Below are positions 45,824 to 55,871 of a stretch of DNA of 64,000 nucleotides, one piece after another (the stretch's first letter is position 1; each line of letters begins with the position of its first letter). The notes beneath the pieces were generated by a model that saw nothing but the letters and a program-made list of their open reading frames with translations, searched no databases and was not told where the DNA came from. The DNA lies in NCBI GenBank assembly GCA_041740795.1, contig JBGSLH010000008.1, positions 15,860-79,859 of the forward strand. The letters are read 5' to 3'. The stretch comes from Minisyncoccia bacterium. Its GTDB lineage: Bacteria > Patescibacteriota > Minisyncoccia > Phycocordibacterales > JAACPR01. A program made the position numbers and the translations under genes.

Positions 45824-45954
45824 TAAAATAATTTTAAAATAGAGTTTTGATCTAACAAAAACTCCCTTTAGGGAGTTTTTGTTTTATACGAAAGTAAGTA
45901 AAGACAACTTTACATTCATATTTCAGTAAGTTATAATCTTGATATTCAAAATGT

Positions 45955-46167
45955 ATGCAAGAGAAGATAAAAAACGAAGTAATCAAATACAGAACAGAGA
46001 TGGGTGTGACTCAGGAGGATCTCGCAACCGGAGTGAATGTCAGTCGACAGACTATCATCGCACTGGAGAAAGGAAACTACACACCATCAATTTTACTAGC
46101 TCTAAAAATCGCTGGTTTCTTTAAGATGCCTGTCGAGCGAATATTCAAGATATCATATGAAAAATAA
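45955..46167 (+). CDS. XRE-family HTH regulator (70 aa)
   Basis: MGVTQEDLATGVNVSRQTIIALEKG. Confidence 0.7.
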   Translation: MQEKIKNEVIKYRTEMGVTQEDLATGVNVSRQTIIALEKGNYTPSILLALKIAGFFKMPVERIFKISYEK

Positions 46168-46531
46168 TCCAAATGGAATAATCAGGGAAACCATTGTCAC
46201 GGCGGCTCTCGTCATACTTGCGATTTTGCTACTCAACCCTTTTCATTTTTGGATGCCAGACATGATGGTAGTGTGTATGCTCGCTATAATACTTGGACTT
46301 TTTGGAATATTTGCGAGTTTCATTCTCCGTGAAAGTATGATTGATGAGCGTGACGGTCAGCATCGGACGCTTGCAGGACGAAACGCATTTCTCGCAGGAG
46401 CAGGAGTGCTTACTCTTGGAATCGTCATACAAGGATATATGTATACAGTTGATCCGTGGCTTGTTGCAGCTCTTGTTGTGATGGTCATTGTTAAAATTGG
46501 TACTCGAATCTGGAGTGACAAGAACCTGTAG
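46157..46531 (+). CDS. small membrane protein, translationally coupled to the HTH gene
   Basis: Three hydrophobic helices. Overlaps the HTH gene stop. Confidence 0.45.
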   Translation: MKNNPNGIIRETIVTAALVILAILLLNPFHFWMPDMMVVCMLAIILGLFGIFASFILRESMIDERDGQHRTLAGRNAFLAGAGVLTLGIVIQGYMYTVDPWLVAALVVMVIVKIGTRIWSDKNL

Positions 46532-46551
46532 CATAAAGTTGTCCACACAGT

Positions 46552-46597
46552 AATGTAAAGTATACTTTACATTTGTTTCTACCTCCTGCATACTTAA
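46552..46597 (+). promoter_or_regulatory. 22-bp perfect palindrome AATGTAAAGTATACTTTACATT overlapping a -35 (TTTACA), 17-nt spacer, -10-like CATACT
   Basis: The palindrome is at 46552-46573. The whole ~65-bp block (from a TTGTCCACA box) is repeated at 46826-46892. Confidence 0.5.
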
Positions 46598-46630
46598 TCT
46601 ATTATTAGTAGTATTAATTTATAAAAATAT

Positions 46631-46810
46631 ATGATGGATAAAAAAATGATGGCTAAAGAAATGATGGAAATGTCAAAAAGTATGATGGAAATGGGTATGG
46701 CTATGGATAAGGATATGATGGAAATGCCTATGGATAATGGCATGATGGAGATGGGTGAAAAGATGATGAAGATGTCTAAGGATATGATGGAGATGGGTAA
46801 GGATATGTAG
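46631..46810 (+). CDS. methionine-rich small protein (59 aa, 26 Met)
   Basis: MMDKKMMAKEMMEMSKSMMEMGMAMDKDMMEMPMDNGMMEMGEKMMKMSKDMMEMGKDM. An uninterrupted frame between the two palindromic promoters. Below the 60-aa cut-off of the ORF track. Confidence 0.5.
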   Translation: MMDKKMMAKEMMEMSKSMMEMGMAMDKDMMEMPMDNGMMEMGEKMMKMSKDMMEMGKDM

Positions 46811-46846
46811 GAAATTTAGATTAAAATAAAGTTATCCACTAAAACA

Positions 46847-46892
46847 AATGTAAAGTATACTTTACATTTGTTTTTCTTTCCTCTATACTAAT
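46847..46892 (+). promoter_or_regulatory. second copy of the palindromic operator/promoter (TTTACA-17-TATACT)
   Basis: Identical 22-bp palindrome at 46847-46868. The -10 TATACT is at 46884-46889, 35 nt upstream of the thioredoxin gene. Confidence 0.55.
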
Positions 46893-46926
46893 AGGTATAT
46901 AAGTAATTAATAGATAATAAAATTTT

Positions 46927-47472
46927 ATGAATAAAAACACAGGAATTATTATTGGGATCATTGCATTCGTGATTATTGCAGGCGGTGTCTATGCATCTAT
47001 GAACAATAACGATGATGCGATGATGGAAAAAGAAAACATGGAACAGAAGGCTATGGAAGAAAAAAAGATGGCTGACGAGAAGGTTTTGATGGAAAAAAAA
47101 GAAGACGAGATGGTGAATAAGGATGATACAAGCGTGATAGATAAAGGTGATGCCACAATGAAAGTTGGATCATACGAGGCATATAGTGCAGACAAGATTG
47201 CTCGTGCAGAGACTGGAGATGTCGTATTGTTTTTTCACGCTTCATGGTGTCCGTCATGTAGGAGTCTCAATTCAAATATCGAAGCTAATATGAGCTCAAT
47301 TCCAGAAGGAGTGACTATTTTGAAAGTGGATTACGATAAGGAGACAGAACTTAAGAAGAAATATGGTGTTACATATCAACACACACTTGTGCAAGTTGAT
47401 AAAGATGGAAACATGATAAAGAAATGGAGCGGTAGCTCAAGTCTCGACAATCTTGTGTCACAAATACAATAA
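46927..47472 (+). CDS. membrane-anchored thioredoxin-like protein with Met/Glu/Lys-rich linker
   Basis: N-terminal TM, the linker DDAMMEKENMEQKAMEEKKMADEKVLMEKKEDEM, and a Trx fold with WCPSC. Confidence 0.7.
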   Translation: MNKNTGIIIGIIAFVIIAGGVYASMNNNDDAMMEKENMEQKAMEEKKMADEKVLMEKKEDEMVNKDDTSVIDKGDATMKVGSYEAYSADKIARAETGDVVLFFHASWCPSCRSLNSNIEANMSSIPEGVTILKVDYDKETELKKKYGVTYQHTLVQVDKDGNMIKKWSGSSSLDNLVSQIQ

Positions 47473-47477
47473 TAATT

Positions 47478-49280
47478 ATGATCTTTTTTCTCATTTCAAT
47501 TTTGGCAGGACTCTTTACAGTAGTAGCACCTTGCATACTACCGTTACTTCCTATTGTGATTGGAGCGTCCGAAGAAGGTGAACGACGAGTGTCCAAGCGT
47601 GCGCTTATAATAATAGGATCGCTTTCGGTGTCCGTTATCCTGTTTACACTTCTCCTGAAGGCAACTACGTTCTTTATATCCATTCCTCAGGTATTTTGGA
47701 GTAGCTTCTCTGGGACAGTCATTATTCTTGTTGGGCTAGCTATCGTATTTCCATCGCTTTGGACCAAGGTACCGTTTGTACAAAAATTAAGCATAGTAAG
47801 TAACAAAGCAGTAGGTGTCGGATATCAAAAGAAAAACTATAAGGGAGATATGTTGATCGGACTGGCACTTGGTCCTGTGTTTACGACTTGTTCTCCAACA
47901 TACTTATTTATTATCGCCACAACATTACCAGCCAGCTTTATCGTCGGACTCATCTATCTTCTAGGATTCACTTTTGGTTTAGCTGTTGCACTTCTACTTA
48001 TTGCGTACTTTGGTCAGCAAATTATAAATAAGATCACCACACATATGCAAACAACGGGGACGGTCAAGAAAGTTTTTGGGGCACTTATCATCCTTGTTGG
48101 TATAGCGGTTCTGACTGGCTACGACAAAAAAATTGAGACTCTTATTTTGGATTCTGGATACGGAGCAACTATTCAACTAGAAGATTCCTTGATTGAGCGA
48201 TTTGCTCCTAAAAATGATTCTATGCAAGAAAAAAACACAATGAATAAAACATACGAAACTATCACGCTTGCAGGAGGATGCTTCTGGTGTACCGAAGCAT
48301 ACTTTCAAGAAGAAAAGGGGATCATTGATGCAGTTTCTGGATATGCTGGTGGAGATGAGTCGGATGCATCGTATCTCTCGGTTGCAAAAGGAACTACAAA
48401 GCATCGTGAAGCTGTGCAAGTAACCTATGATCCAAACATCATTTCTACAGAGAAAGTACTGGATATATATTGGTCACATATTGACCCGACGAATACACAA
48501 GGGCAATTTGCTGATAAGGGATTTCATTATACAAGTGCAATCTTCTATCAGAATGTAGAACAAGAAACAGTTGCTCGTGATGCCAAGATGCGTCTAGAAA
48601 AAAGTGGCGTTTTCACCAAACCAATTGCAACAGAAATACTTCCATTCACTACATTCTTCAAAGCCGAAGAATATCATCAAGACTATTACAAAAAAGCATC
48701 TGATCACTATGAACGATATAAGAAAGGTTCAGGTAGAGCAGGATTTGTAGAAGAAACATGGGCAAAGGATGCGGCGATACAGTTTTTGCAATCTGAGCAA
48801 ACAGAAACTATGGATAACAAAGAAGTGTCAAAAAAGAGTGACTACGATTATACTGAGGAAGAAATTGAGGAGATGTTAAAAAACCTAGATCCGTTGGCAT
48901 ATCATGTGGTTGCAGAGGGTGGTACTGAATCACCGTTCAATAATGCGTATTGGAACAACAAGGCTGATGGAATCTATGTCGACGTTGCAACAGGAAAACC
49001 TCTTTTTTCGAGTACTCACAAATATGATTCAGGTACCGGCTGGCCAAGCTTTTGGAGAACGATTGATGATGATTCAGTAACAATGCATGAAGATAAATCA
49101 CTCTCATCCACTCGCACAGAAATACGAAGTGATGCTGGACATGTCGGTCACGTTTTTGAAGACGGTCCAAAAGAAGAAGGTGGTCGACGTTTCTGTACCA
49201 ACTCTGCGTCACTGCGGTTTGTTCCAAAAGAAGAAATGACAAAGGAGGGTTATGAAGCATATCTCTACCTGTTCACTTAA
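47478..49280 (+). CDS. CcdA/DsbD-type membrane electron transporter fused to MsrA and MsrB
   Basis: TM Cys motifs APCILP and TTCSP. MsrA GCFWCTEAYF. MsrB-type domain (GTGWPSF, CTNSASL). Confidence 0.8.
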   Translation: MIFFLISILAGLFTVVAPCILPLLPIVIGASEEGERRVSKRALIIIGSLSVSVILFTLLLKATTFFISIPQVFWSSFSGTVIILVGLAIVFPSLWTKVPFVQKLSIVSNKAVGVGYQKKNYKGDMLIGLALGPVFTTCSPTYLFIIATTLPASFIVGLIYLLGFTFGLAVALLLIAYFGQQIINKITTHMQTTGTVKKVFGALIILVGIAVLTGYDKKIETLILDSGYGATIQLEDSLIERFAPKNDSMQEKNTMNKTYETITLAGGCFWCTEAYFQEEKGIIDAVSGYAGGDESDASYLSVAKGTTKHREAVQVTYDPNIISTEKVLDIYWSHIDPTNTQGQFADKGFHYTSAIFYQNVEQETVARDAKMRLEKSGVFTKPIATEILPFTTFFKAEEYHQDYYKKASDHYERYKKGSGRAGFVEETWAKDAAIQFLQSEQTETMDNKEVSKKSDYDYTEEEIEEMLKNLDPLAYHVVAEGGTESPFNNAYWNNKADGIYVDVATGKPLFSSTHKYDSGTGWPSFWRTIDDDSVTMHEDKSLSSTRTEIRSDAGHVGHVFEDGPKEEGGRRFCTNSASLRFVPKEEMTKEGYEAYLYLFT

Positions 49281-49307
49281 TTGATATAATCTAATACATA
49301 AAAATAT

Positions 49308-49703
49308 ATGAATAATGACATGCCAAAAAATGAAGACGAGTTCAAGAAGAAGCTAACACCGAAGCAATACGAAGTTCTGCGGGAAAAGGGTACCGAAGCT
49401 CCTTTTTCTGGGAAACTTATTCATCCAGATAAAGACGGTTTTTATAAATGTGCTGCTTGCAGTAACCCGCTTTTTAAGGCAGAAGCAAAGTTCGATTCAG
49501 GTACTGGCTGGCCAAGCTTCGATGAAGCACTTCCAGGGGCTGTGAAGAATGTTTATGATTTTTCTCATGGAATGAGAAGAATTGAAACAGTTTGTGCTGT
49601 ATGTAATTCACATCTCGGACATCTCTTTGATGATGGTCCAACAGAAACAGGTAAAAGATATTGCATGAACTCAGTTTGTTTTGAAGATTTTGACGAAAAA
49701 TAA
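49308..49703 (+). CDS. msrB: peptide-methionine (R)-S-oxide reductase
   Basis: A stand-alone 131-aa SelR domain: CxxC pairs (CAACSN, CAVCNS), GTGWPSF and HLGHLFDDGP. Confidence 0.85.
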   Translation: MNNDMPKNEDEFKKKLTPKQYEVLREKGTEAPFSGKLIHPDKDGFYKCAACSNPLFKAEAKFDSGTGWPSFDEALPGAVKNVYDFSHGMRRIETVCAVCNSHLGHLFDDGPTETGKRYCMNSVCFEDFDEK

Positions 49704-49750: not shown

Positions 49751-50317
49751 CTATTTCTTCATCCCCCAAGGACTTGCTTCAGGCAGGCGTTCTTTTTTTG
49801 AAAGCCTGAATTGGTAGAGTGAAAAGAGTATCGTTACGAGAGTGGCGATACCCTTGTAGACAATCCATTCTTCAGGAGGCAGGAACATTCGCACGACCTC
49901 ATTTGAAACTGCAAGGATTATAAACATGACTGCCCATCGAAGGGTGAGTATGGACCAGCCTTTTTCGGTCATGACAAAAAGATTTCCAAACAGGGGCTTG
50001 AGGAGTGGTTTTTTGAACAATAGGCCTGTCAAAAGTACTAATGCGAATATCCCATTGTAGAGAGTATCCTTTATTATGAGGAAAAACGGATTGTTCAGAA
50101 AAAAGGTGAGTAATCCTGAAACAATGATCGTCATTCCGACAATGAATGGGAACCACGCAAGTTTCTTTCGCTCCAAAAAACCTGCAACAAGCGCAACAAA
50201 AGTCGCCATGACAAAAATAAGGGTTGCCGGTATGAAGGAAGTCAGGCTGGACGCTACAAGGAAGACGATGATAGGTCCGAATTCGATACTTAAATTTAAA
50301 AAAAGTCTTAGTGGCAT
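49751..50317 (-). CDS. hypothetical polytopic membrane protein
   Basis: Five or six hydrophobic helices. Weak resemblance to YciB/IspZ-type proteins only. Confidence 0.35.
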   Translation of the reverse strand: MPLRLFLNLSIEFGPIIVFLVASSLTSFIPATLIFVMATFVALVAGFLERKKLAWFPFIVGMTIIVSGLLTFFLNNPFFLIIKDTLYNGIFALVLLTGLLFKKPLLKPLFGNLFVMTEKGWSILTLRWAVMFIILAVSNEVVRMFLPPEEWIVYKGIATLVTILFSLYQFRLSKKERLPEASPWGMKK

Positions 50318-55585: not shown

Positions 55586-55655
55586 ATAAACATATTTGTG
55601 CCGTATTATTTAGATGCTATACTTAATTCACTTATCAATTAATTTCATAACACGT

Positions 55656-55871
55656 ATGAAAAAAATGACATGTGCACAGATGGGTGGAATGTGTGAAGCG
55701 GAAGTCATGGGAGCGACACCTGACGAGATGATGGCAAACGGAATGAATCATCTTGAAGAATCACATCCTGAAATGGCCGCAAGCATACATTCGATGGCGG
55801 AAGATGATCCGATGATGGTTGCATGGAACGAGAAGTTCACGAAGGACTTCGAAGCTGCTCCTGAGATGTAA
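55656..55871 (+). CDS. DUF1059-like small metal-binding protein
   Basis: MKKMTCAQMGGMCEAEV... Start moved to the internal Met. Terminator at 55879-55902. Confidence 0.45.
   Translation: MKKMTCAQMGGMCEAEVMGATPDEMMANGMNHLEESHPEMAASIHSMAEDDPMMVAWNEKFTKDFEAAPEM

Follow-up and report, generated by a model that had tools for sequence, protein, structure and literature searches.

What purpose is served by a short open reading frame (ORF) that is 44% methionine (Met) and lies among genes for the repair of Met sulfoxide? The question is raised by a locus of a Minisyncoccia bacterium, contained in a stretch of 64,000 nucleotides (nt) of contig JBGSLH010000008.1 (GenBank assembly GCA_041740795.1, positions 15,860 to 79,859 of the forward strand), which is referred to here as the window and whose own numbering is used throughout. 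The ORF, of 59 codons, stands between a pair of genes for an XRE-family regulator and a small membrane protein on one side and, on the other, genes for a membrane-anchored thioredoxin (Trx), a fusion of CcdA with the Met-sulfoxide reductases MsrA and MsrB (MsrAB), and a further, stand-alone MsrB (msrB2). The best explanation, and probably the right one, is that the XRE regulator controls a CcdA/Trx/MsrAB operon for the repair of Met sulfoxide in the cell envelope, to which a peptide specific to this genome has been added, likely as an inducible sink. The regulatory part of this explanation is well supported, and the function ascribed to the peptide is plausible.

The foundation of this explanation is the conservation of the locus. 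The closest relatives of the CcdA-MsrAB fusion, at 77-82% identity, are encoded in metagenome-assembled genomes of Candidatus Paceibacterota/Parcubacteria, some of them labelled Saccharibacteria, and five such genome loci carry homologues of the XRE regulator or the membrane protein upstream of Trx-CcdA-MsrA-MsrB. With the membrane protein as query, 80 further metagenome loci were recovered, for a total of 85 loci and 448,803 bases. Where at least 1.5 kb of downstream sequence is available, the membrane gene is followed by Trx in 57 of 57 loci and by CcdA in 56 of 57, and Msr genes come next in 29 of the 37 loci with at least 3.8 kb downstream. A module of XRE regulator, four-helix membrane protein, palindrome, Trx and CcdA(-MsrAB) is thus conserved in 85 Paceibacterota loci. 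The downstream partners vary. One locus (L083, 4960-5706) has CcdA alone, and in another (L142, 5061-8244) CcdA is fused to a second Trx-like domain with a CINC motif and followed by a separate MsrB, an MsrA and an MsrB anchored by a transmembrane (TM) helix.

The second pillar is a DNA motif. A perfect 22-bp palindrome, AATGTAAAGTATACTTTACATT, occurs at 46552-46573 and again at 46847-46868, each time overlapping the -35 box of a promoter of the form TTTACA-17-[C/T]ATACT, just as the initial annotation of the window had it. A third site upstream of the XRE gene, GTAAAGACAACTTTAC, has half-sites and spacing as in the palindromes, GTAAAG-N4-CTTTAC. With up to one mismatch allowed, this motif is present in three copies in the 64-kb window against 0.22 expected, and none of 100 shuffles reached three. 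Among the relatives it was found in the spacer between the membrane gene and trx in all 78 cases (72 exact, four with one mismatch and two with two), and upstream of the XRE gene, as far from its start as in the window, in exact form in 40 of 65 loci and with at most two mismatches in 57 of 65, always overlapping the -35 box. These counts refer to the window and the related loci rather than to whole genomes. Outside the two expected promoter positions, exact copies numbered zero in the 448,803 bases of the 85 loci, so the occurrence of the palindrome at unrelated loci without msr genes, which the initial annotation had named as a check on its proposal, was not encountered there.

The same proposal took the palindrome to be the operator of the adjacent XRE pair. 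Comparison backs this strongly, but the element is not an operator alone. In 60 distinct trx-promoter sequences of relatives, aligned in register for the analysis of covariation, the -35 box, the -10 box and the 17-nt spacing of the trx promoter (P2) are all kept. The inner eight pairs of the palindrome, ATGTAAAG/CTTTACAT, vary little or not at all, the four-base centre varies freely, and the next four outward pairs show compensatory double substitutions, one of them being AU in 24 sequences, CG in 10, GC in eight and UA in six. A T-run comes after the stem. Double changes at these outer pairs fill 85 cells as against 27.0 +/- 4.1 in shuffles (none of 500 reached 85), the covariation score is 0.260 versus 0.088, and 89% of cells are paired compared with at most 54% when the partner column is slid. 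Because the helix-turn-helix (HTH) domain of the XRE protein is invariant in species whose flanks differ, the covariation is ascribed to selection for base pairing and not to a co-evolving protein recognition.

Accordingly, the copy before trx (copy 2) has the features of an intrinsic terminator, namely a stable hairpin (15 pairs with a loop of four in a terminator scan; -14.9 kcal/mol, z -8.5), a U-rich tail and compensatory changes, and the hairpin is also present in the fold of the whole transcript predicted from the promoter before the ORF (P1). Copy 1, which precedes the ORF, has retained the core and lost the complementarity of the outer stem. Its hairpin is weak for that reason, and the regulator operon is thus likely to be transcribed, to some extent, past it into the Met-rich ORF. 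The comparison suggests that the 8+8 core, with the -35 box inside it, is an operator for protein binding, presumably by the repressor, and that at the trx promoter the palindrome has grown into an intrinsic terminator for the XRE-membrane protein operon, one element of 30-34 bp then serving as terminator, operator and -35 box. A 9-mer resembling a DnaA box, GTT[A/G]TCCAC(A), lies directly 5' of the palindrome stem at 46538-46546 (TTGTCCACA) and 46832-46840 (TTATCCACT). It stands at about -55 to -64 of the trx promoter, occurs in most of the 60 distinct related spacers, and is missing where the stop codon of the membrane gene abuts the hairpin (for example, L099, L118 and L124). It is not enriched across the window (18 hits versus 19.8 expected) and could be the site of a second regulator or a DnaA box.

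The two proteins of the regulatory pair differ in how readily they can be placed. The closest solved relatives of the XRE protein are the PbsX-family regulator 9k3w (E 1.5e-11) and CylR2 (E 6.6e-10; phmmer, residues 10-65), and the region of its recognition helix is invariant in five orthologues. The 124-residue membrane protein has 1042 relatives at E of 0.001 or below and reaches no Pfam or NCBIfam family threshold. Precomputed tables assign many of these relatives to DUF2178 (PF09946), on which the literature searched offers nothing. The window protein itself gave no match to that family and one relative (P0001) gave E 0.36 with 11.4 bits against a cutoff of 22.8, so that the possible kinship would be faint at most. 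Four helices are predicted, as in the AlphaFold2 model, which shows four long helices. One loop, NPFHFWMPDMM (46235-46267, residues 27-37), is invariant or nearly so in 32 homologues, with NPFHFWMPD and both M33 and M36 invariant, and by the positive-inside rule it probably faces outward.

The genes under the putative control of this pair were identified correctly in the initial annotation, as were the regulator and the membrane protein, by the evidence of Pfam, NCBIfam and the coordinates (Table 1). The CcdA part of the fusion also matches Pfam DsbD_2 and carries one Cys in each of two TM helices (VAPC in the first, TTCSP in the fourth), and the MsrAB part consists of PMSR and SelR domains with GCFWC and RFCTN motifs. 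Six helices are predicted for CcdA. By the positive-inside rule its Lys/Arg-rich loops fall on the cytoplasmic side, which would place the C-terminally fused MsrAB outside. The Trx is held by an N-terminal TM helix, and its CxxC site, WCPSC, would likewise be outside the cell. The stand-alone MsrB has no signal and is predicted to be cytoplasmic. An extended -10 box, TGATATAAT, is situated at 49282-49290, 17 nt 5' of the msrB2 start, with no operator nearby; the cytoplasmic MsrB may have a constitutive promoter of its own in addition to operon read-through.

The linker between the TM anchor and the Trx fold, which the initial annotation had already described as Met-rich, has eight Met in 55 residues in the window (~46990-47154), and the trait is common to the family. 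All 45 parsed orthologues have it, with a mean of 16.5% and a maximum of 29% Met compared with 2.6% in the fold, and the background in the long ORFs of the window is 2.2%. The linkers are composed of MMxK[DE]-like units, and that of one relative (L109) gives a weak match to the MXKDX-repeat model TIGR02953, which represents the family of MrpX and BcrX (E 0.0017 and 18.2 bits, below the cutoff of 41). As judged by these orthologues, the conserved Met-rich element of the clade is the Trx linker, predicted to be extracytoplasmic, and not the 59-residue ORF. Two further observations concern anchored proteins. The Trx of L150 (1067-1818) has an extra domain of ~120 residues (..GVPQPSHIHTGTS.., possibly CHRD-like) between two Met-rich linker segments, and L004 (6841-7266) encodes a membrane-anchored protein, possibly DUF305-like, with a Met/His/Glu-rich linker (…EPMHEEMEERMYGD…). 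Surface proteins of the clade may more generally carry Met-rich tethers.

The ORF itself (46631-46810), MMDKKMMAKEMMEMSKSMMEMGMAMDKDMMEMPMDNGMMEMGEKMMKMSKDMMEMGKDM, does contain the 26 Met initially counted in it, along with nine Lys, seven Glu, six Asp, four Gly, three Ser, two Ala, one Pro and one Asn, such that Lys, Glu and Asp make up 22 of its 59 residues (37%). It is built of heptad-like xxMMxMx repeats, with segments such as EMMEMSK, DMMEMPMDNGMMEMGEK and DMMEMGK, and its internal DNA repeats are spaced 21, 27, 33 and 81 nt apart, all multiples of three. A longer N-terminus is precluded by an in-frame TAA (46622-46624) that precedes the ATG by three codons. The ORF and msrB2 share one and the same start context, aaaaatatATG, and a Shine-Dalgarno sequence was found before no gene of this region; translation is neither supported nor excluded by this context.

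The ORF arose with a duplication of the trx promoter region. The initial annotation had noted a direct repeat of ~65 bp, and the repeat is real but longer than that. The P1 region aligns with the P2 region over ~113 nt, from ATAAAGTT[G/A]TCCAC through the palindrome, the -10 box and the 5' untranslated region (UTR) into the start codon, where the two copies end as ATGGATAAAAA and ATGAATAAAAA. The ORF thus sits in an insert of ~295 bp that comprises a duplicated trx operator, promoter, 5' UTR and start codon, and the distance from the membrane gene to Trx is 396 nt in the window as against mostly 80-250 nt in related loci (by tblastn hit coordinates), in none of which do two palindromes lie between the membrane gene and trx. 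Since one relative (L005) has almost the same P2 and UTR, P2-trx is taken as ancestral and P1-ORF as the insert. The two copies match at 27 of 27 positions of the palindrome block and at 67% of the remaining 95 aligned columns. This unevenness speaks for a duplicate that is not brand new and whose operator, that of P1, has been maintained.

A number of points weigh against the explanation favoured here, most of them against its peptide. No Met-rich ORF was found in ~165 related loci scanned for frames of at least 25 residues with at least 20% Met or at least seven Met in 30 residues, once the Trx linkers and a few unrelated ORFs had been set aside; the conserved Met-rich frame on which the initial annotation had staked its proposal is therefore missing. 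The exact sequence is absent from the protein collection, in which annotators had not called it. There is no signal peptide, anchor or hydrophobic segment, and the peptide should for that reason be cytoplasmic, in a different compartment from the linker and from MsrAB, which is predicted to face outward. The notion that it is recycled by membrane-fed MsrAB is thus topologically unlikely, and only the cytoplasmic MsrB (49308-49703) could reach it, no second or cytoplasmic MsrA being encoded within the 64-kb window. Expression and redox cycling of the peptide are both predictions. With respect to regulation, binding by the XRE protein, sensing by the membrane protein and the membrane topology are all predicted features, the AlphaFold2 model of the membrane protein is of low confidence (mean pLDDT 64), and conservation of the core could in part reflect the -35 box and its complement in the hairpin instead of a repressor site. 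A derivation of the coding part from the Trx linker was also considered, given a shared look (MMAKEMMEM in the ORF, AMMAKEKMEQ in linkers). Such a derivation is not claimed, as the resemblance beats mononucleotide shuffles (0/300) but not codon shuffles, of which 100 in 1000 reach the score.

Searches beyond the related loci returned the ORF only in Logan contigs of the same sequencing run, SRR28170465. A word-indexed homology search with the peptide gave no match, and all that a full phmmer search of 1.84 billion representatives produced was a spurious match, through repeats, to a 1245-residue integrin-like protein. No NCBIfam model matched even at E of 10 or below, TIGR02953 included. A scan of metagenome contigs with the back-translated peptide yielded 13 stretches, none confirmed by tblastn, a count that fits chance in a search in which low-complexity filtering could hide a relative. 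These homology negatives are weak, as the composition correction of HMMER penalises such a sequence and small ORFs are under-called, and the status of singleton is partly a matter of sparse sampling, the nearest sampled genome being only ~82% identical at the protein level. The Logan assembly of the run breaks exactly inside the second palindrome (start of L001, end of L082), and palindromic operator-terminators may systematically fragment short-read assemblies at this locus.

The strongest rival, with a real if minority chance of being correct, makes the ORF a non-functional by-product: a partial duplicate of the 5' end of trx, in which ATG repeats grew by slippage in multiples of three and which remains open because it is young, with P1 a spare operator at most. 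The singleton status fits such an origin, although with a nearest sampled genome at 82% protein identity absence elsewhere says little about function. Repeat spacings in multiples of three would hold the frame automatically and the export signal of the linker it resembles is missing, yet Met has been raised to 44%, far beyond the maximum reached in linkers. The -10 box of P1, CATACT, is the weaker one, whereas the intact operator block beside a 67% identical remainder implies a unit that is not very young. Finally, public annotation left the ORF uncalled, but its start context is typical of the genes here and it ends 31 nt before a strong terminator.

Less well placed, and unlikely, is the idea that Cu(I) or Ag(I), and not oxidants, is what the system responds to and buffers, with the peptide and linker binding soft metals and the membrane loop as metal sensor. 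The MxxM and MMxM runs resemble Met-only Cu(I) motifs, and the H..WM..MM loop resembles the His/Trp/Met site of CusF, both of which count for this idea; the same cluster resembles Met-based oxidant sensors as well. Copper stress and Met oxidation are also reportedly linked in Escherichia coli through MsrPQ and CusF (PMC9302797). The regulated genes, by contrast, encode Met-sulfoxide reductases and their electron supply and include no metal exporter or chaperone, and the peptide has neither His nor Cys. Copper-system context was sought in the 64-kb window and not found, there being no P-type ATPase and MxCxxC in one unrelated ORF only.

It is more unlikely again that the palindromes are terminators only, that the -35 box was included by chance and that the XRE protein regulates something else. 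Covariation of the outer stem and the U-tract do show selection for a hairpin, and an invariant right arm containing TTTACA would fix the left arm by pairing alone. Such a reading fails to account for the GTAAAG-N4-CTTTAC site in the XRE promoter, where the flanks in relatives are not self-complementary, which favours protein binding over a hairpin, and where a separate terminator (45854-45883) already lies upstream. Moreover, the invariant block of 8+8 bp is longer than a hexamer, copy 1 keeps the core without the outer stem, and linkage to the XRE and membrane genes is strict.

A leader peptide that senses the supply of Met-tRNA or the oxidation of Met and attenuates transcription into trx is very improbable. 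A short ORF rich in one residue, followed by a terminator hairpin upstream of an operon, is what such a mechanism would look like, but the stop or regulatory codons of an attenuator overlap alternative pairings, and here the 31-nt gap from stop to hairpin is too long for a terminating ribosome to interfere, and the fold of the full transcript shows no competing anti-terminator. In addition, a conserved promoter within or just behind the hairpin serves trx separately, 85 related loci operate without a leader, and there is no Rfam match, with only two sub-threshold small RNA hits over the upstream terminator. An ORF of 49 codons on the minus strand (46594-46743), rich in Ile, Ser and Leu and resembling a small membrane peptide, is the antisense mirror of the ATG repeats. 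That this hydrophobic ORF is the real product, as a small membrane toxin, or that the XRE and membrane proteins are antitoxin and toxin, is scarcely credible in spite of the overlap of the latter two genes, the autoregulatory site in the XRE promoter and a weak match of the XRE protein to Y4mF/HipB-type antitoxins in NCBIfam (36.7 bits against a cutoff of 71.65), for no acceptable promoter exists on the minus strand, the duplication aligns the plus-strand start codon with that of trx, and toxin-antitoxin modules are mobile and occur sporadically, whereas the present pair keeps strict synteny with trx-ccdA over 60-85% identity and has its operator in common with the trx promoter.

Table 1. Features of the Met-sulfoxide repair locus, in window coordinates
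Feature	Position	Strand	Basis or remark
GC-rich terminator upstream of XRE promoter	45854-45883		
Operator-like site O(xre), GTAAAGACAACTTTAC	45898..45913	+	right arm coincides with -35 box of XRE promoter
Promoter of XRE-membrane protein operon, TTTACA-17-TATAAT	45909..45937	+	11/12 consensus matches
XRE/HTH_3 regulator, 70 residues, CylR2-like	45955..46167	+	Pfam HTH_3, E 4.4e-12
Four-helix membrane protein, 124 residues	46157..46531	+	11-nt overlap with XRE gene
Palindrome copy 1, putative operator, weak hairpin	46552..46573	+	RNA fold -7.6 kcal/mol, z -1.1
Promoter P1, TTTACA-17-CATACT, before Met-rich ORF	46566..46594	+	promoter scan
Met-rich ORF, 59 residues	46631..46810	+	26 Met; translation
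Palindrome copy 2, perfect over 34 bp; putative P2 operator and terminator-like hairpin predicted to end P1 transcript	46841..46874	+	
Promoter P2, TTTACA-17-TATACT, of trx operon	46861..46889	+	promoter scan
Membrane-anchored thioredoxin, WCPSC active site	46927..47472	+	Pfam Thioredoxin
CcdA (6 TM)-MsrA-MsrB fusion, 600 residues	47478..49280	+	Pfam DsbD_TM, PMSR, SelR; NCBIfam MsrA/MsrB
Stand-alone MsrB (msrB2), 131 residues, two CxxC pairs, no signal	49308..49703	+	Pfam SelR, E 4.4e-46
Terminator-like hairpin with T-run, 3' of msrB2	49773..49797	+	terminator scan

Elsewhere in the window, an ORF of 85 codons (55614-55871) encodes another small Met/Cys protein, unrelated to the peptide, in which eight Met fall within 30 residues and a CxxxxxxC pair is present (MTCAQMGGMCEAEV...).

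Under the favoured explanation of an XRE-controlled envelope repair operon with an added peptide, a dimer of the XRE protein would bind GTAAAG-N4-CTTTAC at its own promoter and at that of trx and repress both. As the right arm of the site is the -35 box (TTTACA), such binding would block RNA polymerase. A palindrome of the copy 2 type would, in addition, terminate the transcript of the regulator at the trx promoter. The membrane partner would use its invariant His/Trp/Met loop to sense oxidant, or Cu(I), outside the cytoplasm and would lift repression, whereupon electrons would pass from the cytoplasm through CcdA and the anchored Trx to MsrA and MsrB outside the membrane, a path modelled on homologues (PMC3914529, PMC7034828, PMC9239216). 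The Trx linker could then act as a tethered sacrificial Met sink beside its own reductase, comparable to the protein MrpX considered below. Duplication of the trx operator, promoter, 5' UTR and start codon would have created a second operator-controlled unit in this genome alone, the 59-residue peptide of which may be an inducible, MrpX-like sink in the cytoplasm, with the stand-alone MsrB as the only reductase in its reach and for the R-sulfoxide only.

A bolder form of this proposal is best regarded as doubtful. It would have the locus be a kinase-free, self-resetting redox switch of the candidate phyla radiation (CPR), in which the loop is oxidised by hypochlorous acid (HOCl) or peroxide, or binds Cu(I), the repressor is released or sequestered, and the induced MsrAB reduces both the sensor and the Trx tether; to this would be added a newborn gene for a cytoplasmic, 44%-Met scavenger, derived from a duplicated cassette of terminator, operator and promoter. 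As far as the literature searched shows, the conserved CPR regulon and the combined terminator-operator element, both well supported, are undescribed, whereas of all parts the ORF stands least securely.

The genomes of Patescibacteria are tiny and encode few regulators and antioxidant enzymes, yet this clade keeps a tightly regulated module for the repair of envelope Met. Its retention suggests that these organisms, which live attached to surfaces, face oxidation of surface Met as a major stress. A CylR2-like repressor with a 124-residue membrane protein and no kinase is a candidate for a new type of sensor, which could inform CylR1/CylR2 signalling, and the element that may unite terminator, operator and -35 box would be a very compact one. 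A Met-rich sink fused as a tether to the Trx that feeds its reductase would represent a second, independent evolutionary route to the idea embodied by MrpX. Finally, the locus is possibly a snapshot of the birth of a small gene by promoter duplication, and a peptide that is 44% Met would make a convenient natural substrate for Msr assays.

Among known regulators, the nearest in design are CylR2, an HTH-only repressor of the cytolysin genes of Enterococcus faecalis, and CylR1, a small protein needed for induction and predicted to have three TM helices (PMC3709268). CylR2 (PDB 1utx) is, like the XRE protein, an HTH-only member of the family of ~66-70 residues, and about half of 56 aligned residues are identical by eye. 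In both systems the repressor gene adjoins that of a small multi-pass membrane protein. A perfect 12+12 inverted repeat with a TTGACA hexamer inside it lies in the cyl promoter region, a design similar to that seen here, and the palindromes of this locus are of the right size for an inverted-repeat operator of ~22 bp of the CylR2 type and overlap -35 boxes, with binding predicted. The likeness of the membrane proteins is one of architecture only, since CylR1 has three helices instead of four and, as encoded on an E. faecalis plasmid, shows no detectable homology to the membrane protein (hhalign probability 0.7%). The gene order is reversed, the regulated genes are unrelated, and the signal is a lantibiotic subunit in E. 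faecalis, whereas here it would be an oxidant or a metal.

As a route for electrons, the operon is akin to the extracytoplasmic CcdA-Etrx-MsrAB pathways of Streptococcus pneumoniae, S. gordonii and Fusobacterium nucleatum (PMC3914529, PMC7034828, PMC9239216). In each, CcdA would pass electrons to a surface protein of the thioredoxin fold and thence to fused MsrAB outside the membrane, all from one operon, a path that is predicted in the present case. The window differs in that CcdA and MsrAB form a single polypeptide of 600 residues, that an N-terminal TM helix with a Met-rich linker, in place of a lipobox, tethers the Trx, and that regulation would be by an XRE protein with a four-TM protein in a host of the CPR. 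The F. nucleatum pathway is reportedly regulated by a two-component system.

Induction of envelope Met repair by a membrane sensor of reactive chlorine species is known from HprSR (YedVW)-MsrPQ of E. coli (bioRxiv 10.1101/2021.09.09.459708; PMC9805139). HprSR consists of a histidine kinase and a response regulator, whereas the locus described here has no kinase, only the XRE protein and the 124-residue membrane protein. In the E. coli system, sensing is said to proceed via Met residues and to be reset by the reductase, which is the model proposed for the NPFHFWMPDMM loop.

The closest precedents for the peptide are MrpX-YedY1Z1 (MsrPQ) with SigF/NrsF in Azospira suillum and BcrX-BcrQP with BcrS/AbcS in Brucella melitensis; in MrpX, which is induced together with an Msr and oxidised by HOCl, Met makes up 20% and charged residues 44%, and BcrX is a second example (PMC4436054, PMC8315932). 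A survey of 2012 lists ~170 proteins in which Met exceeds 20%, and those chosen for study contained 21-33%. As in MrpX and BcrX, a small protein rich in Met and charged residues is encoded beside an Msr system, with co-regulation suggested here by the common operator; a cytoplasmic transcription factor is paired with a small multi-pass membrane protein; and the proposed logic is one of sacrificial Met oxidation followed by enzymatic re-reduction, which for the present peptide is a prediction. MrpX and BcrX have signal peptides and are periplasmic, whereas the 59-residue ORF has no signal. Their reductase is the molybdoenzyme MsrP with MsrQ, compared with thiol-based MsrA and MsrB fed by CcdA and Trx, and their regulators are an ECF (extracytoplasmic function) sigma factor and its anti-sigma factor, compared with a putative XRE repressor. 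The Met-rich module conserved in this clade is, furthermore, a linker fused to Trx and not a free peptide. The sacrificial peptide that the initial annotation envisaged is therefore no new concept. Sacrificial Met-rich peptides coupled to an Msr and a membrane-linked regulator are already established, and the present case differs from them in its reductase, its regulator, its Trx-fused module, its export and its Met content, at 20% in MrpX and 44% in the ORF.

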